A DNA stretch of 64,000 bases. Source: Trichinella spiralis (lineage: Eukaryota). Positions 11,210 through 38,798 of this stretch are shown here, piece after piece (positions within the stretch are counted from its first letter, which is position 1; every line of letters starts with the position of its first letter). The stretch lies in the NCBI RefSeq assembly GCF_000181795.1, contig NW_003526940.1, positions 903,527 to 967,526 of the forward strand, in the 5' to 3' direction. The notes under the pieces are model-generated. The model was given only the letters and a program-made list of their open reading frames with translations. It searched no databases and was not told where the DNA came from. A program made the translations under genes and the position numbers.

Positions 11210-12420
11210 NNNNNNNNNNTTCTGTTCATTTCTTATCATAATTGAAAATCTTGTTCATCCGCATTATTTGGACAAGTTATCTATGATGTAGATGATGATG
11301 ATGATGGTTATTTGGATACTTTTTCGGTTGATTCAAGTCGAGCTTTGTACAAGGTGAATATTTTCCATCCAGTCCATGTAAAGTTGACAGTCGATGACAA
11401 AATTGGGACGACTAGTTACAATTGAAGAAAGTGCAATTTATTTTACGAATTTATTCTTGCCAATATCCCGACGACGCTGTTTCCACTGACAGTCTGTCTG
11501 TCGATTTTGGACAAATTGAATTTTATTAATTTTTCAAAACAGAGAATGTATTTTTATTCAAATTATCATTTTAAATCAATCTTTTCTTTTTCTGCTTGAA
11601 TAATGATCATGTGAAACGTGAAGCGAATGTGTCTGTGCTTCGCTTGCTTGCAGTAGCGTCGTTGTTGATCGATTGTTGGTTGTACATTAGTGTGTGTGGA
11701 CGAAAAATTCTCCCCCCCCCCCCCCACCCCCGTTATTTAGTTTTGCTTGGTATCGTTGCTAAGTAGCAAATTGGTGTTGAAAGCTTTTCTGATATTTCTC
11801 TGTTGATCAATTGAAATTTATTTGTTGTACAAATTTCACGTGTATTTAAATATGAAGGGAAAATTTTTTTAATTAAATTCACTAAATATTGGAAAGAATA
11901 TTTTTCGCAAAGTATATACAATATTATTTATTTGTTTCTCAAGTACCTCATACAACGGTGAGGTCATGTTGCTCGTTTGTTAGTGCGAATTGCTTCAATT
12001 GACCGACCTTGACGTTCTACCAACTATTATTCGGTGCATTTTGCTGAGAAATAAATGTCAGAAATTAAGGAATCCAGTAGCTTCACAGCAATCCCAATGG
12101 GGCAGCTGTTTTGGGGGCGAATCCTGTTTGTCATTTTATATTTTACAATAATTTTCTATAAGCATTCCCAAAAATACCAGTTGGGGTTCGATTTCTTGCA
12201 TAAATTGTTCATCAATTTTCTCCACTTTGGAACATTTTTCCACCATCTGTTGAATGAACACGAACAAACATTTGTCGAATAATTCAGTTTTATTGACTTT
12301 CTGGTGCATAATTTACTGCAATTGAAAAGCAAATTATTTTTACAATTACAAAACATTTACCTTAGACAATACAGATAGACCAATTTTTCTGTACTTTAAT
12401 TTAATCTTGGCTTTCTGTAG

Positions 12421-15400
12421 GCATTTCTGCCGGCTTGGATGAATTTGTCAAACAACCACAAGGTGAACCGTATTACGTGACTGTTGGAAGTCCGGGTTTG
12501 GTTTTGCCTTGTGTGGTGCAATCGAAATACGCGTCGGCTCCGTATTCGGTTTACTGGATGCGTCTGGTGGACAATACCCCCTATTTGGTGCAGGCGGACA
12601 GCAAATATGAAATTGACCGACACTCTTGCGACAGTTGTTTCAATTTGCGCATCAAAACAGTCGACTACAGTCGGGATAATGGGAAATTTTATTGCCAAAT
12701 TGCCGGACCGGACGGCTTTGCGAGCACGTCGGTCGTGGCCGAGGTGGTGGTGTTGGTGCACCCGCAGAAGCCGACCCTGACCAAGGACCGGGTCGAAACC
12801 AGGGAGGGGCAGTTGGAGCGTTTGCAGTGCGAGTCGATCGGTGGCAACCCGCCGCCCGAGATGCGCTGGTTCTTCGACAACGGTACCGAAGTGACACGCC
12901 TGGCCACTGTGCACAACGCCACTTCCAAAGACAAGCCCACCGTCAGCACTCTGACCTGGCACGTCTCGGCTGACGAGAACGGTCTCCGGCTCGGCTGCAA
13001 AGTTTGGAACTTGGCCATGGGCAAGACCGCGCCCGCCCAGGAGATCTGGAGCCAGCGGTTGCTGGTGCGCTACCCGCCGAAAGTGACCGTCGGGCCGGAT
13101 GCTAGGTACGGAATCGAAGTTGGCCAAGAGGCGAAACTGACTTGCTCGGCTCGGGCCAATCCCCCGCCCACCAGATACAGCTGGCGACGCACCGGCGGCG
13201 CCAGGGACAGCACTTGGACCGAGCAGAACATCTCGCTGACGGTGGAACGCGACGACAGCGGCAGCTACGTCTGCAAGGCGGAAAATGCCGACGGTTCCGG
13301 AGAAGCGACCCTCGACTTGGACGTCCAATACGGACCGGAGTTGGTTGTCGCGGACGAGGTGGTGGTCCAGCAGGGGGAGACGTTGGTGTTGAAATGCGTG
13401 GCCAACGCCAACCCGCCCGCGAAATCCGTACTGTGGACCACGCCCGCCGGCGACACGCATCCCACTCCCACCCTCCACTTGCCCAACGTACGTCGCCAGC
13501 AGGCTGGCAATTACACCTGCACTGCCAGCAACGAGCTGCGTCTGTACGGCGCCGGTTCGCCGACGAGCCGCACCGCCTCGAAACGTACCCGCGTGCTGGT
13601 CAGCCACGCCCCGGGTGAGGCGAGAATTACGGTCGCCGAGCCGGTGTTGGTCGGCAGCACGGTTGTGTTGAACTGTTCCGCCTCGGATCCCGGATATCCC
13701 GCTGCTCGGTTTCGCTGGAAAGCGCCCGGCCAACGCGACTACGAATACGGTGCCAGGTTCTCGTATCCAATATCCGACGTCCAGCTGACCCACGCCGGCG
13801 ATTACTGGTGTCAGCCGTTCAACGACGTTGGCGATGGTCAAGCCAGCAAATACAAGCTCATCGTTCGAGGTAATTGTTTATTTATTTTTAATTACATTTT
13901 TTGGTCTATCAAATCCGCTGTTTTTCTTCAACATTCAAGTGTTGAATTTGTCAACTGGAGCAATACTAATTTTACATAGAATAATGTTGACAATTTTCCC
14001 GGTGAAATTTGATCCACATTTTCAGTAAGATGAGATCTTTTGCTTGTGTTGTCGAATTTTCTTCCATATTTTGTCAAAGAGAGAGGGCTATTTGTTGTTC
14101 TGTTGATGATGTTGCACAGTTTTGAAGCTTGCGTGCGGCAACTGTTGAAATTATTTACAAAGTGCTCAGTGCAGAGTGCTGAAGCTGCACAATGTGCAAC
14201 TGGATCCAAATAGATCGCATGGCGCAATTCAGGTACCATTGGGCCATTGCGTGTTTGTGCAAACAGTTTCGCCGGTGAATGGAAGAAAAATTTACTTTCC
14301 ATTCATTATAGCTGTTTGTTCAAATTTCAATATTGTTCAGTTTGAGCAAATTTTAGGCTGCGCATATTTTGAAGTGAAAATTAATAATAACACAGACAGA
14401 CGGACACACCGATTATGATTCGAATCAGAGATTCTCAATTTTAGCTGAGCGAAAATAATCAGTAATAATAATTTCATTTCAATTTCCTCATTTCTGTGTA
14501 CATCCAATTCTGACCAGTGAACTTATTTATGCAGAAGGAAGATTTTCTTTCCGGCTTCAAATGTCTCTTTCCGACTCTCTGTGCATACACCCGCCTGGCA
14601 CACACGCACATATCATTTTACATTTATTATTACTTATTTATATCATTGATGCAATGATGATATTTATTATTAGTAGAAGATGAGATCTTTGGAAAAGGCT
14701 TTAGGTTTTGAATGTAAAAATTTTTGAAAATTTTCGAAAAGTTTACAAAACGCAATTGCAAAACTTGCAAGCTTGCTAAACTGGTTGGATGTAAGCATTC
14801 ATTCAGTTTTTCAGCACAACAAGAGAAAACGAGGATGCTTTTTCTTCACTTCAAATGAAGCGTTTATTTATTTATTTGTTTAATTTTTCATTCATTTATC
14901 AAACATTCGCACGAACAAGCGGATTGTTTTTCACTTGGAAAATTGAAAAATTAAATACTTTGACAAACATACGTCCGTCTTTGCGCATATTTTTCAATGT
15001 AAATTCTCTTTTGCGTTTCAAATACAGCCAGAGGCGCATTATTTATTCTGCAGTGAAAAATGATGCTTTCGCTTCTTCAATTTTTGATCATTTCTAATTT
15101 TAATACCGCAGATGCAGTTTTTGTCTTGAAGCAACAAAATTTGACGAGAAGAATGATGTTTTCATTTTTTGGGGGAAAATTTTCGAAATATTTTTCTCTT
15201 ACACTGCTCGCAAATTAATCGTTTACTGCACTTTGTGCGTTGTGCTTCAGGCGAAAAATATAATCTACCATTAAAATTTGTTTGGACATCTGTGAATTTT
15301 CTCTGCAGTAGAGATATATATATATATTTTTTTTTGAAACACTTTTATTCCACGTCAAAGTAGAAAATTTCTTTTTATTCTCGCATTTTATTAATAAGAT

Positions 15401-16200
15401 TTATTATATTCTGTTTATTTTTTTTCTCTTCAGAACCTGCTCGTTTGGTGAAAACGTTAAAAAGCGAAGATACGGTGCGAGAGAAGGAAACAAATTACAG
15501 ATTAATTTGTTCAGCTCAAGGGAATCCTGTTCCAAATATCACTTGGTATTTTAACGATCAGCCAGTGAACAGTGAACGTTTTCTCAGCATTTTGGAGCCA
15601 GAGGCCCAGAACTGCGATGTACCGGAGCGCTGTTCGTACAAGGTAAATTTAATAGCACACCAATATTCGATATATTATTATTTCCCACGGTCAAGTGACC
15701 ATTATTGTATTTCGACGTAAACGGTTCCTATTGTACTTGACAACGGGGGTCAAGTTGCAATGTATTTTTACAGGTCAGTAGCAGTTTACAATGGCTGACC
15801 GGCATGCGTTGGAATGACAAAGGCTATTACACGTGCCAGGCTTACAACGGCGCCGGGCGTGCTTCGGAAAGTCGCATGCTGTTGAAAGTGCAACACCGAC
15901 CGGTGGTGGTGAACGATCCCGATCGACCGACCGTTGCAGCACAGCTCGGCCACCGGGCCCGGATTTCGTGCCGTGCCAGCGCCTCTCCGGAGCCGGTGTT
16001 CCGTTGGTACCGCAATGGTCAAGAGTTGAGTCAGTCGAATGTCGACTTCGGATCCACCCAGCAACGAAATCACTCTTTCGACGTATACGAGAACACGTTG
16101 CTTCTGTCCGACGTCCACCAGACCGACCTCGGAGCTTATACGTGCAAAGTGGCTAATCTGTTTGGCGAAGATTCTTTCGTTTTCACCTTGCAACCGAAAA
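12421..16200 (+). CDS. Multi-Ig-domain cell-adhesion protein (nephrin/echinoid-like), partial; exons 12421-13869, 15434-15642, 15774-16200
   Basis: About seven tandem Ig domains with C...W...DxGxYxC signatures (DNGKFYC, DSGSYVC, QAGNYTC, HAGDYWC, DKGYYTC, DLGAYTC) and CESIGGNPPPEMRWF. GT-AG sites are phase compatible. The signal-peptide exon and the 3' (FN3/TM) exons were not located; gap at 16859. Confidence 0.88.
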
Positions 16201-18363
16201 GTAAGTAATTTCTCCTCCACAGTTAGTTGAAGGGTGAAAAAATATTTCTCTCCTCTTTCTTATATTTTATATTTTGCATGCGTACTTTTTTCTTGATGAT
16301 ACAATAATAAAATTAGTCAGCTTGATAACTGGCAACAGCTGGTCAGTTTTGTAGCCATACAATTGGAATTAATTAGCTTGCCCCAAAGCACGTTGTATTA
16401 ATGTGTAGTGTAATTGGGAAATTTTCCACTTTCATCTTGAGAAGATTCGCTGAAACAAGAACTGAGTGGACGGGGAAAAATTGGCCGATGAGAACATTTT
16501 CTTCAACAATCACTATTTTCCATTTTGCAACAAACACAATTGCCTTTAATTATTGTCTTCATTTTGAAAATCTGTTGCGCTTTAATATTTTTATCAATAG
16601 AAATATTTCATGGGAGAGAAGAGTTTTATAGTTGAGATCCAGCAAGAAACATCTTCCAACAATTAGTCTTGAACAATCTCTTGAACTCTGCTTGAAGCAA
16701 TTAATCGATAATTGTTTGTTTCATCATATAAAATTCTATTTATGCGCAATGAGTGACAACATGTTTGAATAGAATTATTATAAATTGAATTTGAAATGAA
16801 AATGGTAAATGAAAAAATTTTCTTTTTTTTATTCCAGGTAACCCATCGACCTGCTTCANNNNNNNNNNACTGAAAAATTACCACCCCAAAGGATGTGATC
16901 CTTTTCGCCTATGCGAGCTTTATTTCAATTTACGATAATTTCCAATTTTATTGACAATCACGTCTTATTGATTTTTATAATATATCTGTTGCAGGCCAAG
17001 TCCATCGCAATTGGTGTACACACAGGCGGCCATTCAGTTACTCTGTTAATTTTTGATTTATAATTTTGCTTTTTAAATAAAATTTTACTTCTGTACTGTT
17101 TGTTGTTACTAATATACTTTTAATTTCTACTTTAAAATTTTTTATATTCTGAAAAATAACTTTTATTGGTTTATACTTTATTCCACTATAATGCATAAGT
17201 GTTGTTCTTTTTGTTTTACTGGTGTATTTCAACTTGTATACGTTGCCACTATAAATAAGTTACTCAGTATGACAACAAGTTTTGCACAATCTGGTAGCAT
17301 CACCCATTTAGAATAAATCAGATACAAAAGTAGAAAAAACAAAGCAGATGAAACAAAATTTTTTTCTTTCGTAACTTTAAATAGTGAAAATGCAAATTTG
17401 ACCTTTTCATCACTTGTTTCTCAACATGAATTTGGCCTTTTCATCGATTGTAAATGAATTATATCTTTTGCCGGCATACTGCTAATTGTTCAGGTAAATT
17501 CTTAATTTTCCCACATTTCAACATAATATTTAAAAGTGAGTTCAACAATTGGCTGAAAGGCTGCATGAATATTGTACGGTTGGCAAAGCTTTTATTTGGA
17601 AATGGCGATGTCATGGAGACTTCGCATAGCCTGTCACTTCTGCCATAAAATTTGTTTTTTCACCGATTGCCAAACCTATGTAATAAAATGGACTAAAAGA
17701 ATGGAGCTTGAATTATCAGGAACCACTAAAATATGGCGTTTTTATATAATAATATATTTTAAATTGCTTTTAAACTATTGTTGTGGTATAAAATTGTCTA
17801 TTCAGACGGAAAACACACGAAAATTGACTAATAGTACAGTAATAGTAACAGATAATCAAGTTGAATAACACACGTATTCGCTGTCGGCAGAATTTTTTCA
17901 TCAGATACATCGCGTAGATTATTTGTTCAATAAAAGTCAAGTGATGTGGATATTTTATGCTAAACAATTGGAACAAGCAAAAGATAGAACTGAAAACCGT
18001 GGGAACTGCATGACATTTGAGATATAAAACCCAGTTTGAAGCAGTTAAGTCTGGCAAATATTTCCTGTTTTATCAAGATACAAACTCACTTACTAATTTA
18101 CCATTTTTTGTGTTCTATTTGTTAATTTTTTATTACCACATTTTATATAGTGTTTCACTTTGGTACAATAAAATACACAACAGCAATTGAAATTGTTCTT
18201 AAAAATGCTACTAATTAAAAAGCATAGAATGCGCAAGTTTATTGTATGCAAAAATTGAAATGCAATGTTTATTTGTACAAAATGATGAGAATATTTGAGC
18301 AATACGATACCTATTCATGATGTTGTGTAATTATCATGTGACCATTTGTTCAACAAGTGTTTG

Positions 18364-19946
18364 TCAAAGTCGTCCGCTGTGCTTCAATAAAATACTCCAA
18401 TATAAAAGGTTGAATACCAAAAAAATAGAAGGAAATATTATTCTTGCGTATTTATCAATGTCGCTAGAAGAGCAGCAATGATGGTTTCGGAATTTTTTTG
18501 TTGACAGTTTTTTAAATGAATTCAAAGAATGCCGTTGAAATCTCGGATATTTCGGTATCGTTGTAGTGGACTGTGGAATTGCAAACGGATCTACCGGATG
18601 CATCCATGTTGATGCATTTAACGACTGAAGAGAAACAAAATTATTATTTTATTTTCTAACCGAATAAATTGAATAAATAAATTTTACTCACCGTCGTGCT
18701 AGTCAGCTTGTCGCATTCACATGGCAGTTCCTCAGTTGTATTCAGTTGGCAAGATGTACTACCTAATTGCCATGGATTCGGAGATGTTTCATGCATTGGA
18801 GGTGGTAGACGATTCAGAGGTGTGAGCAATGAAGGACCTGCAGACATTTGAGCGTCTTCTTGTGCGACTTTTGCAAAAGCGTCTTCAATTTTTTTCTGTT
18901 TCTTTCTTTTGTCTTTGTAAGTGACAAAAGCATATTCAATAAGTGCACAAAATACCATTACGTAGCAGAAACCAAGATATATGTCTACAGCTTTGACGTA
19001 GCTTACTTTCGGCAACTGCCCATTAGTTGTGGTCATCAGTGTCGTCATAGTCAAAACTGTCATAATTCCTAATGTAACTCTAGCCGGAGCTGATTCACGA
19101 CTTATCCAAAATGAAACCCATGAGATCATTACTACCATAAGAGCTGGTTGATAAATCTGTACCCAGTAGAAACTTAAATTTCGAGAAAATGTCAAATGAC
19201 AGGTTAACCTGGAATAATCACCTAAAAATGAAATGATTACTTTATAACATTTAATATTTAAAAAATCGTTACTTTTAGTTAAGCATATTTTAATATACAC
19301 TGCATAATGCACAATTTTTAGGTTATTGCTTCCAACAGGACTAATATTTAAACACATCACAATGAAAGCGTATTGATTATACAACATTACAAATAATGTT
19401 ATCTTTAATACTGAATCAGAAATGGCAAATGAAATACGAATTATTAATCATGACACATTTGATAATTTAAGCCTGTTGATAAATGTCATATTGATGAACT
19501 TCATTTCTTATTAGTAGTTGTTATTAGTTTCATAATATTTCTGTTGGTGATGGTGTCGCTTTCCATTCAAAAAACTACCAATAAATTGTTATTAAAAAAG
19601 AAAAGCAAAGATATAAATGAAAATGCTTCATTTCTTCAGAAACAAAATTGATTTAAATAGCAAAATTTCATTAAACTACTATTAAATTTTTTAACGTTAC
19701 AAATAGATAAAATTAGCACCAATTTTTTAGCAGTAGTAAATTTTACGTGGTTAGCATTACATTAAGACTAAGCTATTTTTTCTTATTTTTGAATGTGTGA
19801 ATTACCTGTACTGAGCGTAATTTTTCGTTCAACTATGAATAAATCCTGTAGCTCAAACGTCGGTAGCTTACGAATTTCAGCATCAAATGTAACAGACTGG
19901 AATCCTTTCAGCCAAAACAATCTTATATCAGCATCAGAGTAACCAT
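18364..19946 (-). CDS. GABA-gated chloride channel, distal alternative C-terminal cassette B (exons 19946-19806, 19221-18692, 18624-18364)
   Basis: Encodes YGYSDADI...TLSTGDYSRL, M1, M2 [21 protein letters not shown]3 and M4 IDKYARIIFP, then a stop. It has no N-terminal exons of its own; its phase-1 acceptor fits shared exon 5, giving a 496-aa product. Confidence 0.9.
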
Positions 19947-20430
19947 CTATGAAAAAACTATTTTTTATACGCAATACAAAAAATCGTAACTTTTTGTGAG
20001 CACCAGTTGAAAAAAGTATCTCTTTGGCATTTTATCAAATTATTATATATTCAAGAAAGATGTGACAGTTTACATTATAGAATATGAAATGCAACTTGAT
20101 TGCCTTGTTAAATAATAAAATGGGCACCTCGAATATTCGAATTCTATTTTTAAATTCTATTATGCCAGTAATGATAGTATTCAAGCTTTCTTTTTAAATA
20201 ATTCAATGGAGTAAATTTTATAAAGAGGAATAATAGATTCATATTCTACGGATTTAATCCCAATTTAGCACTTTTTCATAATATATAATACAGAAAAGTA
20301 AAACTTAGGCAATGAAGATGATTGTTCTTCGCAATGACAATAAGCTCGATAATAAGGATGAATTTTTCACAATTTTTAACGTCCTGAAATATGTTGAAAA
20401 AGACATAATCGGTGGTGAAAAACTTCTGCT

Positions 20431-23430
20431 CTAAACTCTAGAAACTTTTTCATTAATTTCTTGTCGACTAATGAAAAAACATGAAATCCAGTAAACGGCG
20501 TTGAAAAACAAAAAAAATAAAGGAAACATTATTCTTGAATATTTGTCGATGGATGACGGAGTGACGTGATGTAGCATGTGACGACGCAGTTTTGGTCGAG
20601 AGACAATTCGCATAGGCACTGGGCGAATTTGATTCATGTCACAATCACATTCAAGCTGTGACATAGAGAGAGAAGGGCTCATATCGGCATTCGCAAAACG
20701 CTTAGCATTGGGTCGATATTGAGCTCTATTTTTTGCTGAAGAGGTATAAGGGTAATATGATGATCGGGGTGCAGATCCCTGTAAAGTGAAAAGGATTTAT
20801 TAAAAAAAATCAAATTAGTTATATTCATCAAGGAATAATCATGCGTGACACTTTCATATTAAAACATTTTGCTAATTCATAAGATTCATCATTTTATACT
20901 TTATTTGATTCATTAAGAAACAGATTTTTTTTCTGCTTGCTAGCTGATAAGATACGCTAAGCTTATATTAAGTGGACAATAAAAAACAAATTTATTTTAT
21001 AAAATGTTGAAGTTTCTGCTTTTCATAAATCAAAATTACACATTTTCAAAAGTTATAAAAATATTTTATAAACAATTTTTTTTCATTAAAAAGCAGCCAA
21101 TTGCTTAAACGTTAATTAAGCAGTAACTATATATCGATTATTGATAATTGTGAAAATAATAATAATAATAATATTTGAAGCAAATTATAAGAAGAAATAG
21201 ATGAAGCAGCAACTTACAGAAGATACGAAAGATGCCATCATTGGATCGGCAGATGATAAAATCCCAGAAGAAGACAAAGGTGGAGGCATATGTTGAACAG
21301 TTTGTTGCTGCTTTCGGCGTTCTTGTTTCATTTTAACTTTTTTGTTCAAGTAACTAACGGCAGCATATTCAATCAATGAAGCAAAGACCATAACAAAACA
21401 TGTCCCCAAATATATATCTATAGCTTTTATGTAAGATACTTTTGGCAAGCTTGCATTAGTAGTGGTCATTAGTGTAGTCATTGTTAACACTGTTGTAACA
21501 CCAAGAGCGACACGAGCAGGTGATGCATCACGATGAATCCAAAATGAGACCCAAGAAATTATGACAATCAGCATTGAAGGAATGTATATTTGCATCATAT
21601 AAAATCCAATGTTACGCACGAAAACAAATTTTACATGGAGTCGGGAATAATTGCCTTAAATTAAAATTTTTGAAACAAACAAATTCACTATTTTATTGCT
21701 TTACATGATAAGTTTGTGCTATTTTAAAGAAAGCTGTTACTATAATCTACATTTATTATTCATAGATGAATAAGTTAAAAGAAAAACATTTTACCTGTAC
21801 TTAATGTTATTGTTCTATTCTTCATTGTAAAATGTGCCACATAAAATTGTGGTAAAAATACTTCGTCCATTGTTACAGTTTTGTTTTCAAGCCATCTATA
21901 TTTTGTGTCTGCTTCAGAATAACCGTCTATAAAATGAGAACAGAAGTGTGTCACTGAAAAAATCTGATGCTACTTTGTTGCCAGCTTTTTTTGTGCTTCA
22001 ACAATGTACAAAGCGAGCAGGGTGGAGGTAAACAAAAGTGAATACCGCGTTCAGCGGTTTACGAGCATTAAAAATGGGAAAAATATCATCACCAAAACTA
22101 CCGTCTTACTGTAAACAGCGCTGAAACAGAACTAATTTTCTTATTCTCAGGATTTGACGTTACTGTGCAATATTCAACTGGTGCACCACAAAGTGATAAA
22201 ATAAAAACGAAATCTACAATGCATGTGTCTAATTGTTTCTACTTACAGCTTTCAATTTCCAAGGTGCATTCTTGGGAATCCAAAGGAAACAAATGTAGCA
22301 ACATTGGACAAGATGCAGTTACAGTTAATCTTAAATATTAAATTGTAGTGTTGTTGATTTCACATAAAAATAAGAACAGATAAAAAAAAATTCAATATTA
22401 CTTACCTCTGACTTGTGAGAACTTCACCACTGCCTTTTATTCGAAGAAAACTGTTATGAGTAGTAGCCGTGTGCATGTAGGATTTCTTTTCATTGGGAAA
22501 AAATGTATCTGGCACCCAAATATCTTTTGTGTATTCCCAACCTACGGTTAGTTCCTCCTTTGCACCGAGTCTTTTTATATTTAATCTGGGATCCATCCAA
22601 TTTTGTCGAAGATAAAAATCAAGTGTGTAATCCTAAAAATAAATTATAATATATACAAATTGAAATACATAAAAAGCACTTAACAATACAAGTGATGAAA
22701 TATGCAGGTAAAATAAATTTGATTCATTCATATAACTTGAAAAGTAATTGTATTATCTGTTTGTTGAAAATGTTATTTATATCAATAAAACTGCCAATCA
22801 TGGAGTTTGATAATTTAATTTTCAGAGAAAATAAAACTTTTTCATACAATTTACATGGTGTTCATGAAAGTACAACTCACCATTTCTACCTCTGATACAG
22901 CACTTATACTGGACACATGCATCGTTATGCCAACATCAACAGTTCGTCCTTAAAATTATGAGTTCGTATTTTTTAAGAAAACGTAAAAAATACAGAAATT
23001 ATACCTCCATAATTTGGTCGTAATCTTTTGTCATAGTAAGTTTTATTGACAAGGATGTTCAAAATGTGAGTAATATTTCTTGATAGCTCACTTACCCTGA
23101 AAAATGTCCACTTGAATAAATTCAAATTTAATTCTTGCATAATTAGGGCAATTCTTAGAAATTCTTGTAAGCAGCATTTTAAAAAATATATACAGTTTTC
23201 AATAAATTTCGTTATAAAAAGGGTTAAATTTATATTTAATATTATTAAAATAGTATATTATTACTCTAAATAAATTTGAATTCATTCCTAAAATATTTGA
23301 ATTCAATTCATTTTCATTGATAAGCCAATAATTAAACTTACCCGTGAATTTCGGATGATGTATAACAATTAGAAACGTCTGAGAAAACAAAACAAAAAAT
23401 TATGGTTAATAAAATTCGTTTTTTCTTCAT
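20431..23430 (-). CDS. unc-49: Cys-loop GABA-gated chloride channel subunit, UNC-49/RDL family. Shared exons 23430-23342, 23096-23005, 22948-22881, 22632-22406, 22329-22247, plus proximal cassette A 21926-21795, 21654-21218, 20778-20431
   Basis: Signal peptide [49 protein letters not shown], Cys-loop [20 protein letters not shown], and anion-selective [16 protein letters not shown]. All splice phases are consistent, giving 491 aa. The symbol rests on family motifs and the shared-N/alternative-C layout. Confidence 0.9.
22173..22192 (-). promoter_or_regulatory. Candidate intronic RNA docking site complementary to 19993-20011
   Basis: Pre-mRNA UUUGUGGUGCACCAGUUGAA pairs with UUCAACUGGUGCUCACAAA: 12 contiguous Watson-Crick pairs, a 1-nt bulge, one G-U pair and 6 further pairs. 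Confidence 0.65.
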
Positions 23431-26400
23431 TTAAAATTGCTTCCAAGATGCAAGAACTTGCGAAACTGCTCGTGGTAACAGCCGACGGTGATGTTCATAA
23501 TAGAAATGTAAGCATTGTAATCAATCAAGACCCTTCTGATGCCAGCGTTGCTTTTCTTTATTGACAACATAAAAACCTAAAACAACAAATTAATCCTGCT
23601 CAGCTTCCTTATGAAAAGAATCAAGCGAACGACAATATGATTGAGAATTAGTGCATTAAAGTTTTATGCGACAGGTGTAGCATATCTCTGAAATGTAATA
23701 TTCAATTTTTCACAAATCGCACGAATATGAACACGAATAAATTAGAACAAACAAAGCAAGAAAAACATGAAATTATTTCACATGAAATGATCAACTGCCA
23801 TAATTATCAGTTTCAGGAAGTTTCCTCAACTGCTACAGTTAATACAATAACACTGACAAACAGTAACTGTTAGTATTATTTAATAAAGGGCAAATAGATT
23901 AGTGAGCAACTGATATAAGTATACGAAAGCAAAAGTGCATATCTGCTGGTAAAAATATATCATGCTCATGAGGTGGATAATTCTTTCAATAAGCTACACT
24001 AAGCTCTTGCCAATTTCAAAAAGGATATCACAGATATTCCAGTAGACGGATCATTTCATATGGGTAATTTCAGCTCATTTGGAAAATGACAAATAAATCT
24101 ATGAATACATTTCTCATTATTAAACCGGAAACCATTAGTTGAAAAATTAGTAAAACTTGAAGCGGTAAACAAGAGCTTTTGAAACAGATGAAGGCGTTGC
24201 AAAATCACAACTATCTTCCGATTTATATTGAACGATTGATTCAGCAAAGCGCAAATAATTGAAATGAGTAAGCAACGCCGGCCGGCAGAGGTGGATTTAT
24301 TCATTCTAGCCAATTTCCAAGAAAGAGAATGTCAAATCAAATTTATGCAGCATTTAAGTAGTGCTTGATTCTTTCTTTCCACAAGCGCACTCTGGCGACC
24401 AAAGCCGTTCACCAGACCTCTCTAACCGCTTAGCATATTATTATGGGGGACAAGATGTATTCTCCCTTTCTCTCTTTTCTCCCTCTCTTGCTTTCATTCT
24501 TTTTTTATCACTTTTTTCTTAAATTAAATTTTCCATGCACAAATTACGCTGTCATCGCTTTGGCAATTTTTAAGAACAATTCTTTGAATTGACTGATAGC
24601 ACGGCATTTGCATTTTGCCAATAATAATTTCAGAAAATAATACCCCATCAGTCATGGCAGAGGTTCGTGAAAAATGTTCTTCAATGCTTGTGGATCAATC
24701 ATTGATTTGAGCCGAAAAGAAAATTGGACAAAACGTCAGTTGGACAAAATTACAGAATTGATTTTCGGTATAAGAAGAAGTGATGTTTTCATAATTAATA
24801 ACCTCTTCCAAAGGCAAAAAACATTTCATTATACAGTCCATCTTTTTGGTATTAATACTACTTTGAAATTATTGATAATGCTTTTCAATTAAACACAACA
24901 TGCAACAAAATCAAAAAAGGAAGATTACATCGATTAAAGTTTAAAATCTTTTATGCACTAGCATTTTTTGCATTTATTATCAATTTCTTGAGTTTTGACA
25001 AGAATGTTATATTAAAATTTGTTCATGATGATTTTTTGTGCATGCATAACAGTATGCATGTTGTGCAGTTTTCTTCGCTTGATATTAAAAGTTCAGAATA
25101 CATGAACAATATTAAAGAAAACCTATGGGAATTAATATTAATATAAAAGTAAATTCAATTTTAAAATTATTTATTGCTGCATAAGATAAATTTGTTGATT
25201 ATATACATCAATGAAACGATGCAAATATGAAAAACTGCCCTCCTCCAAAGCAAAGTTGAGTATATAGACAGTTGTTTAAATGAACACATGACAGCTTTGC
25301 CATATACCTGACTATCGTGTTCAGTGAGAAACAGCTGCTAATTATTTAGAAACAATGACAAAGTATTCATTCACTGGCTATTGCAAAAGCGGCGAAACCA
25401 AGTTGCGCATTTCAAAGCTATATTGACAAATAGATAATTCCAACACCAACAATCTGAACATGAAACACTTTACCATGTTGTCATATAAGCTGAAGATAAA
25501 TGCTTTGATTTTTCAGATATTTTCTTTGTAAACATGATTGACTATGTAACTGATATTAAATAACCAACTGCATATGCTTTGTTGTTTATTATTAAACTAT
25601 ACTTTGTTAAGTTCGTTTTTTTCTGCAAAATTTGAAAAGTGAATTAACAGAAGAACCTCTTGATTTTTTTCCATTATAACAAATTTACTTCTCCTAGTAT
25701 AAAATTGCATTTCTTCTTTTCGCATTTTTCTACTTTATTGCATATGATGAATAATTTGTAAATTATTTTACTTGCAATAATTACATTGCTTCATTAAATT
25801 TCATATGACATGGTTCAGCAATCAACTGATAAATTGGTAATAATTGAGCAAGATTTTATTGTGATGATTATTATTAAATGGCGCTTTAGAAAATTCAATT
25901 TTTCAAATTTTATTAAATTCTTGTTCTAATATAAAATTTTAATTTCATCCAATGCACATCAATTGATTCAAATTGTCCTTTTACACGCCAATTCACTTTT
26001 TTTCAAAGATTATTGATTACCACTTTAGATTATTTTTTTGGTATTTTTATTTTATCAGGGTAAAGAAGTTTTTATTAACAGATTTCAGTTTCAAAAAAAA
26101 TGCGTTAAAATAATTCAAAATTAAATTTCGCTCAATTTCTTGTCTTATATTTAATATTTGTAATTGTTTCAAAAATATCAAACAGAGAAAAAGATATTTT
26201 TAAATGGAATTTATTTAGAAAAAACTTTAGTTGTTGAAATAGCAATTTTAAAAAGTATCAATGAAGGGTAAAATTTAAAGCCAAAAATTTGCTTCCATTT
26301 TACATAACATTAAATTACATGGACATTCAATTATTGATTGATTACTGACTAAATTATTTGCACAAATGTAAGCCAACAATGAAAATATTTTCTGAAAAAA

Positions 26401-32113: not shown

Positions 32114-35100
32114 ATGGAGATGTCATCGTCAGGCGGTGGTGCAACGTGGCGTCGTTGTCGGCCCCGTTTCGACTGTCTGGAAAAATACCTGAACCGCGGC
32201 TTCCGGCTCTACGCGGCCTGGGTGTGCCAACACCCGTGGCCGTTCATCGTGGTTCCGGTGCTGCTGAGCGTGGTGTTGTCGGCCGGTATCCCGTACCGGC
32301 ACGTCTTGTACAGCGCCTTGTACTTGTACACACCCCAAGATGGTACCTCGAAATACGAGCAGCGGGTTTTCGAGCAGACCTGGCCCCAGACCAATACTAC
32401 CTTCCAGCCGAGCAGATCCGTGATCGACTTGCGCCAGTGTCAAGTGATCGTCTCGGCCAGGGATCATGGAAATGTCCTCAGGCCGGCACTGAGCAAAGCT
32501 GTACTCAGGCTGAACGACTTCATCGTCAACGACATTGTGGTGAGTTGTCAACTTTTTTCCTCTATATAATTCAATATCCGAAGAAATATTCATTCTTCCA
32601 CTGGTATCTAGTGCATCTAGAGTGGGGGATAGGCGTGTAAAAAAGTAGAAACAATAATCTCTTTGAACTTTTCATTCAAATCAATTGTAATTTTTTGGGA
32701 TAATTCTCCTTTTGAACTTGTCAATTTTTGTCGATTTCTTTTCAATTTTCATCAAATTATTAATTTACAAAAATTTTGTGGCCGACTGATAATTTTAATA
32801 TTTAAATATTTCAATTTGTATTTTACATTTCGACGAACATTTCTCGTTTCCTTGCACAATACACAAAACGGGTCCATTCATTTGAACATGATTAACTGAA
32901 GCGTGAATAAAAACAGCTTGAATTGGACGAATTGTTGTTTATTTCCTATTTTTTTTTCGTCGTCGTCGTCGTTGTAGTGGTGGTGGTTGTGGAAAAATTC
33001 AAAAGTCCAGTCTGCGGTATATCAAATTTTTTGCCATTTCAATTCAGACGGTAAAATTATTCGACAACTAAATTACCGGTTGAATTTGGTCTTTGCTTTA
33101 ATTTTTTCCTAATTGATTTTCAAGAAAGTTTCATGCTGTAGTTGGTTGGTTGGAAAAATTTTATGAAAAACATCAAAAATATACATATACCCCATCCCAT
33201 TGATTGATTGGAAATGTTTTGCATATTTGAAATTTTACAAAAAAAAAATAGGACGAAAATAGAATTGCAATGAATCATTATTTTCTTATTTCTTTCAAAC
33301 AAATGAATTACTGTAATTTTTGTTTTTTTTTTCTTTCTCTTATTTTCTTAATTTAACAATTCAAATCAAAACAGATCACATTTTGACATGCTTGAAAATG
33401 AATCAGTCGTTTGTCAAATTTATTTACAATATTACCAACTTGTCAAGCGATCGTTTATTTGCTTCGTTTGAAAGTTGTTTTCTTGTCACGGTTGTTGCTA
33501 ATGCTAATGACCATTTTGCACATCCATCCACATGTGGATGCATTTCAAAATTTTCCCCTCCTCCGCTGACTTCTCTTCTTTTTCGTACAATCAATTCACA
33601 AAAGTGGACAACTTTTTTTTTCTTCTTCCAATATATATTTTATATATTCAAATATTTTATATTAAAATGTGTCAAAGAGTATCTGGGTCGCATTTTGCAC
33701 ACCAATAGCTGAAAATGTTGCACTAGTGCACTTTTGACACTGAAACTCATTCTCCATTTCCGTTTGACACTAATACTTTATCGAAGAAAATGCCATCAAA
33801 TAATAATAGTTTTGTTTTGAATAAAATTGAATTAAAAATATATATAATAAAATGATATATTACATCATATAATAAATATACTTTATTATTTTTTTTAAAG
33901 GTTGATCTTAGATCTGATAATTTTCTTTTGCTTTTTCCTGTTTTATTAAAATGAACAGAGGTTGTTGCTATTCTGTTTGTTGTCAGTCATCTTTTTCTTC
34001 TTCTCTGGTTGTAAATTTCATTCTAATTCGGTTAATGGACAATAGAGAGAGGCAGGCAGGGGGAGGGGTACTTGACAATTTTCATTTGAACAGAAAAATT
34101 TTCCCAATTTCCCCCGATTGTAATTTTCCTGAAATTGCACAAAACGGACGATTATTATTCAAAGTGTTAACGTGTAATTTATTACATTGAAGAACAAAAT
34201 ATTAAAAATATATTCTTCTTTCAAATCAGATCAATAGAACAGGTTCCTCCAATCCAACAATTAATTTCAAATTTAATCATTTTCTTCTAAGGATAATTTT
34301 TATTTTTCCAATATTATTTGTTAAATTTGGTTGAAAATTGACTGATTAATTAATTAGTACATACAAACAAACAAGTAAAGTCTTTTTCATCTTCTAAGAT
34401 TGAAAATGATGGTATTACATATGGGTACAAAGATTTGTGCTTGAATACGAACAATTTTTGTTACACCAATCCACAAGTGGCCATAATTAGTCAAATGTTC
34501 GCCGAACCGAATCCGTACGGCAATTTGAGCTATCCGACAGCCACATTTGCCAACAGTCGTATATATTTGGGTTTGACATTGGGCGGCGTCGAATTGGATC
34601 CTATCAGTGGTCAAATTGAACAAGCCAAAGCTTGGTTTTTGATTTATCAGCTTCGTTTTGACGGTGAATTCGACAATTGGCTCAGTTCCAAGTGGGAATT
34701 GGAATTCGAACGTGCACTGCTCCATTACAAGGACGAGATGTTGCAGTTGACCGTATTCCATTCGCAGACGTTGGATTTGGAATTGTCGAAAAATAGCGAC
34801 TACATGATGCCGAAAATGTCGTTGATGTTCATGTCGTTGATTATATTCGCCACGTTGTGCGCGGTAACGTTCATCTGGGACCAGGACGGTCTACCGTGGG
34901 TCGACTGGACCCGAAGTACGCCGCTTCTCGCTTTTGCCGGTATTGTCGGAGCTGGCATGGGTGTGGCCAGTTCTATCGGCTTGCTCAGCATTTTGGGAGT
35001 TTCTTTTTGCGAAGTGATCGGTGTTATGCCCTTTTTGGTTATATGTAAGTTTTCGGAATTTAGAATTGAAAATTTTTTACCAATCATTATTCTTGTTACA

Positions 35101-37127
35101 TGCAATTCACGTCGTTCACATTTTTTCACACAGCTGTCAGATTGGACAACACATTTTTGATGACGTCGTCGTTGTTTCATACTAAACGATCGGCACCGGT
35201 TGCCGAGAGAATTTCCGAAGCGATGGGCGATGCGGCCGTCTCCATCACCATCACCGTACTGACCGATGTGCTCAGTTTCGGCGTCGGATATTTCACCAGC
35301 TTCCCGGCCGTGCAGCTTTTCTGCACGTATACTTGCGTGGCGATGATCGTCACGTTCATCTACCAGCTGACATTTTTGCTCGGCTTGCTCGTACTGCATG
35401 CTCGCAACGAAGCTCGAGCCAAGCACTGCTTGATGCCCGTGATCAAAACCTACACCGTCAAAGAGACGAAAAGTAGAAATATACTGGTGCGGTTGTTTTG
35501 CACCGGATCGTCGAGCAGCAACGTCAAAGAATCCTGTTCGACGACAGCCACGAACTGCGACAACGGTTACATTCACAGGCTCAGTGCCGAGAAGCCAACT
35601 GGGGTCGGGGTCGGCGTTGAATGGGACCATTGTCACGGGCCGGTGGCCGAGTTCAAAGCCAACGCCCAAGAAGGCACTTGGATCAGTCGAGGTTTCCGCA
35701 ACTATTTCGCCCCGTTCCTGATGAAACCGTGGACCAAAGCCGGCATTGTTCTACTCTATTTGATCTATTTGGGCACGTCGATTTACGGCTGCATCGGTTT
35801 GAAAGAAGGTCTCGAACCGGTCAACTTGCTGGTCAGCGATTCGTACGCCATCAATTTCTACCGCGATTTGGAACGCTACTTTTGGCACATCGGAGTCCAA
35901 GTCCAGGCCAGTTTCAACAGGCCGGGCAATTTGAGCGATCCGTCGAATCGGCTCCAAATTTACAACATCGTCCAAGAGTTCGCCAACAGCCCGCACGGTA
36001 TGGGCGAAGAGGGATTGGAATTTTGGCTTTACGAATTTCAACAATTTTTGCCCAAATACAACGGCCTTCATGTGGACGATTTGGACGAGAGGCGATTTTA
36101 TGAAAATTTGGAAGCATTTTTGCAATTTACCGAAAATCGACGATTTGCCAACGACGTTCTTCTCGACTACGACTACGACTACGACGAAGAATCTCCACCG
36201 TCACCATCGGTGGACAATGTCCAATTGCAAAGCTTGAATCGGTCGTCGCGCTCGACCATTCTTAACCCGGATGTGAAGAAGACGACCACGAGGAGGAGGA
36301 GAAGGAGGAGGAGGATCGTCGGCGTCAAGGCGTTTCGACTGATGATCGGCATCAAGAAGTTCGCCACCGCCCTCGACCAGACCGAAACTACCACCATGTT
36401 CCGCCAGTTGGCCGAAAAACATTCCAACTACAACATTACCACTTTCCATTACATTTGGCCGTTCGTCGACCAGTACATCGAAGTGTTGCCCAACGTGCTG
36501 CAAGAAGTCTACTCAGGAATGGCTTGCATGGTTCTGATCGCGCTGCTGTTGATCCCCCAGCCGCTCTGCTCAGTTTGGGTGACGCTGATGATCGCCTCGA
36601 TCGACATCGGCGTCGTCGGCTACATGACACTGTGGAATTTGTCCATGGATTGCGTGTCGATGATCACGTTGATCATGTCGATCGGCTTTTCGGTCGACTT
36701 TTCCGCCCACATCGCCTACGCGTACACGGTCAGCCAGGACAACGCCCCGTTGGATCGGATTCGCTTCGCACTCGGCAGTCTAGCCTGGCCAATCATCCAA
36801 GGTGGTCTGGCGACCATACTCGGCGTGCTCGTACTGTCCGACGTCAATTCGTACATGGTCAAGGCGTTCTTCAAAACTGTACTCTTGGTCATCCTGATCG
36901 GCGTCGTCCACGGCATCGTCTTCTTGCCGGTCTTGCTCAGCATAACCGATTTCAAAATTTGGCGCACTCTGATAACGCCGAAAGTGTCCACCGACCACCA
37001 CCACCACCACCACGACCATACGACCAACAAACGACACTCGAATCCCGGGCTCGAATTGCCCCAAGAGTCGGCGTTGCCGAAGACGAGCAGCAAAAATTGC
37101 TCCATATTCACCGTCACTGAACGATGA
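32114..37127 (+). CDS. Patched-related (PTR/PTCHD) sterol-sensing RND-family membrane protein; exons about 32114-32539, 34399-35044, 35134-37127
   Basis: HPWPFIVVPVLLS N-terminal TM, LYTP, sterol-sensing domain (VMPFLVI...DNTFLM...AAVSITITVLTDVLSFGVG...FPAVQLFC), second half SIGFSVDFSAHIAY and FFKTVLLVILIGVVHGIVFLPVLL. The start may extend by a short exon at 32026-32070. Confidence 0.93.
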
Positions 37128-37369
37128 TGACAAATGTTTTTTCCATTTCAAATCTTATTTCTTTTCAATTTTTGTACAATTCATAATCACTTACATGCCA
37201 TGTCACACACACACACACATCAACAAACTATTTTTTTCGACAATTATATTAAAAATTTCTCTCTGTTTTGATAAATGAATAATGATTTTCTTATTTTTAT
37301 TTTTTATAAGAAAAACATGAAAAAAAACTATAAAGACAATGATGCATCATCACTATCATGCATGCAATT

Positions 37370-38798
37370 TTAATGTACCACATTCCTGGATGTCGAAGGT
37401 ATTTCTTCTTCATATTCGACTTCGACACGAGGTTTGCGGATTAAATATTTCACTCGTTTCTTCCGAAGTTTGCCGGTTCGTTTCTTTCTCTTATCCACAC
37501 GTTGTTCATCATCACTGGAATCGGATTCATAAGAAGACGAAGAAACAAGCTTCTCGGCAAAATCCTAAAAATAAAAAAAAACAAATGCAATTTATTTCCA
37601 ATTTTTCAAACTTGAATCTCTCCACTCACTTCCATATCGGATACTTCGCTTTCTTCAAAATCTTCAACGTACTGCACATTCTCTTCCACTTCTTTTCCTT
37701 CAGTTGCATTTTTTTCACCAACCACCTGTCTCTCTTTTTCCAACGTTTCTTCGTTGAAATCATATAAATCACCGTACTGAAACATTCACAATTCGTACAA
37801 TTGCCATCCTTACAATATACAACTTGATCATCATTGTAGAGTACTGTGGGTAAAAAAAAATTTTTTTCTCAACTCTCAGTTTGTGATTCAAAAATTCTTT
37901 GCACTTCAATTAAATGAAAGTGAAGGCAAAAGTAGTTTGTTAGATAAAAAGCTGCGAAAGCTAGAATTCAAATTGAACACAAGTAAAAAATAATATCCGC
38001 AAATATATGTAGTGAAATTATACAGAATAAACAATAAAATTTGATTTTAAACGTAGAATAATGCTGATATAGACTAGTTCAATTTCGGGCAATGAATGTA
38101 TACAATGAAATAAAAACACGTACTGTTCCTTGTTGAAGTCTTTCTAAAAGCTCTCGTTCTATTGCTTTGTCAATCCGGGCAGCAGCTAATGCTTTCGTTT
38201 CTCGCCTCAGTTCACGTTTCTCAATTTTCCTTGAAATTGGAATAATCTTTTTCCTAAAATATAATTCAATTAATATTCAAAATGTTTGATTTAATTAAAT
38301 ATAACTGACTTGGATTTTAACATCAGTTTTCGCATTCGAACTAAAACTTGTTGATAACGTATCAAACGCTGCTTGCATTTAAAACGGATAAACTTTGGCC
38401 AATAGAGCAAACGTTCATCAATAACAGCCATGGCATTTTCCAAATTTTGTGGCAATCTAACCTTCTCCCACAAACGTCCTGGAAAATGGCTTCGTTCCAC
38501 CTCTTTCATGTATAAATAAATTCTTCCTTAAATGATTCATTACAACAAATAAAATGTTCAACAAATGAATAACAATTACCTTTTTCCTCTCGAACAGTTG
38601 CATATTGACTGTTAGCCATTGGACAAGCTTGTCGTGTACACAAACCTGTTAAATTCCATTCACTCCGACAAAATTTCTGCGTTTTTGTTCTGTAAAATAG
38701 TAATTGTAATAGGAAATCAAATATGCAAATGCTTACTGAGTTTTATATGAGCAGAATCCATTTGACAACAGTTGCCAAACCACATCATCAGTTTGCAT
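37370..38798 (-). CDS. MAK16: MAK16 60S ribosome biogenesis protein
   Basis: [78 protein letters not shown], acidic tail ending [10 protein letters not shown]...H then stop. Confidence 0.95.

Follow-up and report, generated by a model that had tools for sequence, protein, structure and literature searches.

A candidate long-range intronic stem that may loop out the proximal cassette of an unc-49-type GABA receptor gene in Trichinella

On the minus strand of the window, by which we mean the whole 64-kb stretch of DNA that was analysed, lies a Trichinella Cys-loop GABA receptor gene of the unc-49 type. Five common coding exons run to a donor at 22246 and are followed by two full three-exon C-terminal cassettes; tblastn and Pfam searches detected one PF02931 set and two PF02932 cassettes, and no third cassette in the 64-kb window. 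Shared coding exon 1 (23342–23430; this and all following features are on the minus strand) encodes a hydrophobic N-terminus whose translation matches the N-termini of models P0002 and P0004, and ends at a GT donor. Exons 2 (23005–23096) and 3 (22881–22948) were placed by tblastn and have GT/AG boundaries, while exon 4 (22406–22632), encoding the ligand-binding domain, was identified by its PF02931 match and an RNA joint at 22329/22406. Exon 5 (22247–22329) carries the Cys-loop, and its donor serves both cassettes, as seen from the joints 22247–21926 and 22247–19946.

The proximal cassette, A, consists of exon 1 (21795–21926, from RNA joints), exon 2 (21218–21654; TM1–TM3, from PF02932, RNA joints and tblastn) and a last exon (20268–20778) with TM4, a stop codon at 20434–20436 and a 3′ UTR to ∼20268, where a cassette-A contig of the X20 dataset stops. 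Hexamers resembling poly(A) signals are found close by, at 20280 and 20258, and the contig end at 20268 is not a mapped cleavage site. The distal cassette, B, begins with exon 1 (19806–19946), which is joined to exon 5 over 2300 nt and has a loose end matching the next exon. Its exon 2 (18692–19221; TM1–TM3, UNC-49C-like) was delimited by PF02932, tblastn, a tree and GT/AG boundaries, and its last coding exon (18364–18624; TM4 and stop), placed by tblastn with P0015 and an AG boundary, is outside RNA coverage. The 6′ residue of TM2, which governs picrotoxin block, is Thr in the proximal and Met in the distal cassette. This anatomy, in which exon 5 is common to both forms, the three A exons have a separate 3′ end and a distal cassette follows, had been correctly recognized in the initial annotation, as judged from the sequence, the RNA joints and tblastn.

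Cassettes A and B are ∼52% identical over TM1–TM3 and have the same exon layout, as alternatives that arose by tandem duplication do. The distal TM exon is 96–98% identical to Trichinella models and 63–64% identical to Trichuris models. In a 34-row TM tree, where a T. zimbabwensis row stands in for the window's own cassette B row, the distal cassette joined UNC-49C and a Romanomermis row (89/91, not starred) and thus leans to UNC-49C on sequence grounds; the proximal cassette was assigned to none of UNC-49A, B or C. Fused models from Trichuris and Soboliphyme contain two cassettes as well. Numerous public models of Trichinella and Trichuris genes (among proteins P0001–P0111) likewise fuse A and B into one protein of 640–795 aa with two TM bundles. 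The RNA joints indicate separate A and B isoforms, and the fused public models of this locus are misannotations. A scan of metagenomes, in which 80 of 246 loci were kept, revealed no tandem cassettes after a single N-half among the 45 loci of at least 3 kb, and a scan of genome contigs found no relative. One metagenome contig (L049:2156–7693) carries a tandem array of two Cys-loop receptor genes, both complete and both equipped with an N-half.

Both ways of splicing exon 5 were observed in a close relative. None of the X20, X11 and X22 datasets is on record as RNA, and it is their spliced joints that reveal RNA content. In the X20 contigs (organism E), the shared donor is joined both to A (22247–21926) and to B (22247–19946), the latter joint skipping 2300 nt with CT..AC at its ends; both internal joints of cassette A are present as well. 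The loop-out geometry over cassette A that had been claimed for this gene is real. Among the X22 raw reads, which carry the window's own species label, we found four A joints and a depth of ∼1 over exon B1, and neither a B joint nor intron-5 retention is listed for the 18 reads placed from ∼18% of the run. Intron 5 up to acceptor A (21927–22246, 320 nt) was seen unspliced in 380-nt contigs that extend from exon 5 into it, over its whole length in X20 and over 22060–22276 in X11 (organism B). The retained contigs have depths of 30.8 (X20) and 27.2 (X11), both rough values, and the other short introns covered in these two datasets have no depth. Seeing intron 5 unspliced in both suggests that splicing to acceptor A is slow. 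Its retention places a stop directly after exon 5. Relative to organism D, there are 5 changes in the 320 nt of intron 5, fewer than in the neighbouring 140-nt intron with its 8 changes plus one indel.

Two introns of the gene contain complementary arms. The upstream arm, E1 (22173–22192), starts 54 nt past the donor G at 22246 within intron 5, and the downstream arm, E2 (19993–20011), ends 46 nt ahead of the G of the distal acceptor at 19947; re-reading the sequence reproduced the positions, letters and approximate distances to donor and cassette-B acceptor on which the initial annotation had built its proposal. The arms are 2.2 kb apart, and E2 lies ∼260 nt past the point where the RNA contig of cassette A stops. 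Duplex calculation confirmed the ∼19 bp, one bulge and one G-U reported earlier, namely 19 pairs including the G-U and a single bulged U, with an energy of −26.8 kcal/mol for the bare arms and −28.4 kcal/mol with flanks. The stem has the layout of a single loop-out stem, in which boxes of at least 9 nt flank the proximal acceptor and lie near the donor and the distal acceptor. Only on the sense strand does the G-U pair form, a slight difference in energy (−26.8 versus −24.7 kcal/mol). The description of the arms as GC-rich was overstated, with 45% and 42% GC in the arms against 37% and 27% in their respective introns.

When 19803–22329 (2527 nt) was folded, E1–E2 was part of the minimum free energy structure, with 17 of its 19 pairs at a probability of at least 0.85, and was the dominant long-range helix. 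Opening local structure costs 6.6 and 5.3 kcal/mol, leaving about −15 kcal/mol for the helix. Nothing else within 17.8–26 kb pairs as well with either arm as the opposite arm does; the next candidates reach −18.5 and −16.5 kcal/mol, a margin of at least 10 kcal/mol. Intron 5 by itself folds no better than its shuffles (z 0.93), and no Rfam covariance model matched 17500–26000 at E up to 1. A local hairpin of 5 bp (22165–22169 with 22182–22186) covers half of E1 before E2 is transcribed, and differences at 22165 and 22166 in relatives C and D turn two of its pairs into G-U. A candidate helix over the pyrimidine tract of acceptor A was rejected as weak (−10.6 kcal/mol).

How rare such a helix is depends on where one looks. 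Dinucleotide shuffles of the two introns never reached the strength of E1–E2 in 200 trials and did so in 2 of 8595 in a larger set; the energy thus stands out in the comparison with shuffled introns that had been named as a check. E1–E2 was also the best of the gene's 55 intron/UTR pairs, a comparison in which some intron limits are off by 1–3 nt, with the next pair at −18.1 kcal/mol. Across the whole 8.5-kb gene region, the best helix was this strong in 132 of 2043 block shuffles, and in AT-rich parts of the window in 13 of 213. Because helix strength is less rare gene-wide, the position of the arms carries much of the case. Within the GC-rich region at 13–16 kb, three helices outscore E1–E2. 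The GC-rich islands at 12000–16300 and 34000–38000 (43–53% in places, versus ∼30%) hold several inverted repeats with energies between −24 and −34 kcal/mol, and a frame at 15789–16259 in one of them has no Pfam match. A second long-range helix is present in the 5′ region of the gene (24269–24281 with 23540–23552, minus strand; 13 bp + 4, −29.0 kcal/mol), its downstream arm lying in a stretch whose translation agrees with a T. zimbabwensis model at 40 of 40 positions. A pair of helices of such strength came up in 3 of 2043 shuffles.

Conservation of the arms, named as a check in the initial annotation together with compensatory changes, was followed at the nucleotide level in close relatives. 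No X21 sequence (organism F, share 0.03) aligned to the region, which does not count as absence of the arms there. E1 is identical in X11, X15 and X18, and in X20 by tally, with four of five differences listed and the fifth inferred to be 22166, a site that differs in X15 and X18. E1 is thus unchanged in four of four covering relatives and E2 in one of one, all of them close; for E2 this means no change among the X18 differences listed (40 of 43 rows; one X18 row has no assigned position, and the tally lacks 4 of the 46 letters that differ). Given a background of 2.7% in X18 (39 events in 1465 nt), the probability of zero changes in 39 nt is 0.35, so that this invariance has little power. No compensatory change, and no arm difference of any kind, was seen in the covering close relatives. 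In T. pseudospiralis, model P0013 opens with a peptide derived from the intron, in which 7 of 7 residues over E2 equal the window translation, whereas two of the six residues upstream of E2 differ (Fisher p 0.24; third codon positions are unseen in such a comparison). Protein searches for intron-derived open frames returned nothing beyond P0013, only short matches without an E2-like stretch. Conservation just as high was found in another non-coding/5′ stretch (23457–23576), where the T. zimbabwensis model agrees at 40 of 40 residues. The pattern fits the pairing model weakly and falls short of proof.

Judging from sequence and calculation, it is likely that E1 and E2 pair in the pre-mRNA and promote splicing of exon 5 to the distant second cassette; the complementary arms are real and well placed, and the stem they would form is probably functional. 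Among the considerations that favour this role are the distances of 54 and 46 nt that separate the arms from the very sites found spliced together, and the proof of the same architecture by compensatory mutation in Drosophila Nmnat (PMC2724269) and CG42235 (PMC6191721). Once exon 5 and E1 had been transcribed, the near acceptor A would splice slowly. A transcript completed at the 3′ end of cassette A would yield the A message; if the polymerase reached E2 first, the helix would close and loop out the A acceptor, exons and 3′ end. After closure, only ∼100 single-stranded nt of the 2300-nt intron would remain besides the helix, close to the length of other, short introns in this gene (56–76 nt). 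The stem would in this way determine how much of a typical subunit (6′ Thr) is made relative to a UNC-49C-like subunit (6′ Met), and would do so as one stem racing proximal splicing and 3′ processing, with no pair of selectors contesting one docking site.

Several other accounts of the complementarity have to be set against a loop-out stem. The complementarity could be fortuitous, B being reached via the ordinary competition of weak acceptors, poly(A) read-through and splicing proteins, and the inverted repeat being inert. Helices this strong arise in 132 of 2043 gene-wide and 13 of 213 window shuffles, the case was picked from a scan of many windows, and covariation was not seen in the covering relatives. 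Against a need for the stem, Pan et al. (2018, PMC6191721) note that the choice of a 3′ cassette need not involve pairing. We regard chance as unlikely, given that among 8595 shuffles limited to the intron pair in question just 2 match the helix, that each joined site has an arm less than 55 nt away, and that two such helices per gene occur in only 3 of 2043 shuffles. The helix could instead act mainly on 3′-end processing, suppressing or outlasting cleavage at A and maybe holding the cleaved precursor for the splice from exon 5 to B. With E2 ∼260 nt past the A contig end, the poly(A) region falls within the loop, unlike in Nmnat, and rescue of premature cleavage by such structures has been proposed as a hypothesis in the part of Kalmykova 2021 available to us (PMC8052449). 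This role is very unlikely in our assessment: a contig end does not by itself mark a cleavage site, and simple approximation of the splice sites accounts equally well for the geometry. A wider version, which treats intron 5 as a checkpoint where splicing is held and has the helix bridge a precursor already cut at the A poly(A) site, carrying exon 5 to B across the break in nematode unc-49 loci generally, appears distinctly doubtful.

Two further explanations assign the arms a role other than pairing with each other in RNA. As DNA elements, they could represent an enhancer-like motif present twice in opposite orientation, or what is left of the ends of an old mobile element; a 10-nt palindrome lies within E1, and both arms contain the E-box-like CAACTG, a hexamer linked to muscle bHLH factors. 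The 19-bp match is, however, much longer than an E-box, cassette duplication would yield direct and not inverted copies, the 12-nt core has only these two exact copies in 64 kb, no target-site duplication is visible, and no further X18 contig spans either whole arm, all of which makes such an origin highly improbable. Alternatively, E2 could be preserved because a transcript containing B alone begins with a short first exon that includes it, as drawn in P0013. An ATG-led frame of 13 codons, followed by a GT and in phase with exon B1, is available and is used by that model, and C. elegans unc-49 has a short C-only transcript. Such an exon is extremely improbable here, since RNA depth over 19958–20224 is absent from both X20 and X22, the resulting intron would measure 44 nt and have a poor donor, the exon is used by only 1 of the 42 Trichinellida models examined, and E1 would be left unexplained.

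UNC-49 is a target of piperazine. The choice of cassette matters because the C. elegans B/C heteromer and B homomer differ ∼180-fold in picrotoxin IC50 (166 versus 0.9 μM), according to the available part of PMC8841521. If the loop-out reading is true, long-range control of 3′ cassettes extends from flies to an ion channel of a clade I nematode, and similar bridges are predicted in other unc-49 loci; if the doubtful reading of a bridged, cleaved precursor were true, such bridges would set the unc-49 subunit ratio, and hence receptor pharmacology, in nematodes generally. A single 19-bp stem offers a cheap and direct handle on a cis mechanism.

Complementary elements around a distal splice choice are reportedly found in nematodes too: Mathews et al. 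are said to have described, in 2015, conserved elements that flank a nested gene at C. elegans unc-17/cha-1 and favour the distal splice. That locus comprises two different genes with a common non-coding exon, whereas here the alternatives are duplicated channel halves of one receptor. At C. elegans unc-49, a common N-terminus is spliced to tandem C-terminal copies, with three cassettes instead of the two in Trichinella, and the accessible portions of PMC8841521 and PMC11296113 give no cis mechanism for the choice. Our literature search, thin on subscription papers, found no report of pairing-based cassette choice for unc-49. The initial annotation likewise knew of no such mechanism for unc-49-type loci; loop-out stems as such have tested precedents in the single stems of Nmnat and CG42235, which promote a distal 3′ acceptor, and in the 3′ cassettes of PGRP-LC.

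The initial annotation had read the duplex as part of a competing docking-site/selector system of the Dscam kind. As far as the available text of PMC6071210 describes it, Dscam resembles the present gene in that long-range intron pairing draws the chosen acceptor near the donor; unlike in Dscam, there is no array of competing selectors here, and the alternatives are terminal cassettes coupled to polyadenylation, whereas Dscam exons are internal. Of the top 12 partners of E1, none is located in intron 5, ahead of acceptor A, and the next best anywhere reaches −18.5 against −28.4 kcal/mol. Lacking a partner before acceptor A, the docking/selector reading fails its defining test, and with no selector for cassette A found where one was sought, competition of the Dscam or PGRP-LC type was rejected.

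Closer parallels come from Drosophila genes with duplicated 3′ ends. Pan et al. (2018, PMC6191721), in the sections available, report pairing for the duplicated 3′ cassettes of PGRP-LC, CG42235 and Pip, which share with this locus a common 5′ part, tandem multi-exon 3′ cassettes and an intronic element before a cassette that is complementary to one near the shared donor. For CG42235, the same sections describe activation of the second cassette by pairing. In PGRP-LC, as described there, two similar selectors vie for a single docking site, which itself overlaps with a donor; unlike PGRP-LC, the present gene has a partner for the distal cassette only, and its helix masks no splice site. A close likeness is also seen in Drosophila Nmnat, where a stem is needed for the distal acceptor, as established by compensatory mutation by Raker et al. 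(2009, PMC2724269). In Nmnat as in the gene studied here, one long-range intronic stem encloses the acceptor through which a proximal alternative terminal exon is spliced in, and distinct C-termini are produced. The Nmnat stem spans ∼350 nt of intron 4, against 2.2 kb in Trichinella, its box 2 precedes the poly(A) signal whereas E2 follows the cassette A 3′ end, and the part looped out here is, unlike in Nmnat, a duplicated three-exon cassette. The Nmnat stem is conserved in 12 species and tested, whereas E1–E2 is a candidate stem covered in close relatives only; as such, and as far as its sequence indicates, it would add one case to the known loop-out stems of fly genes.
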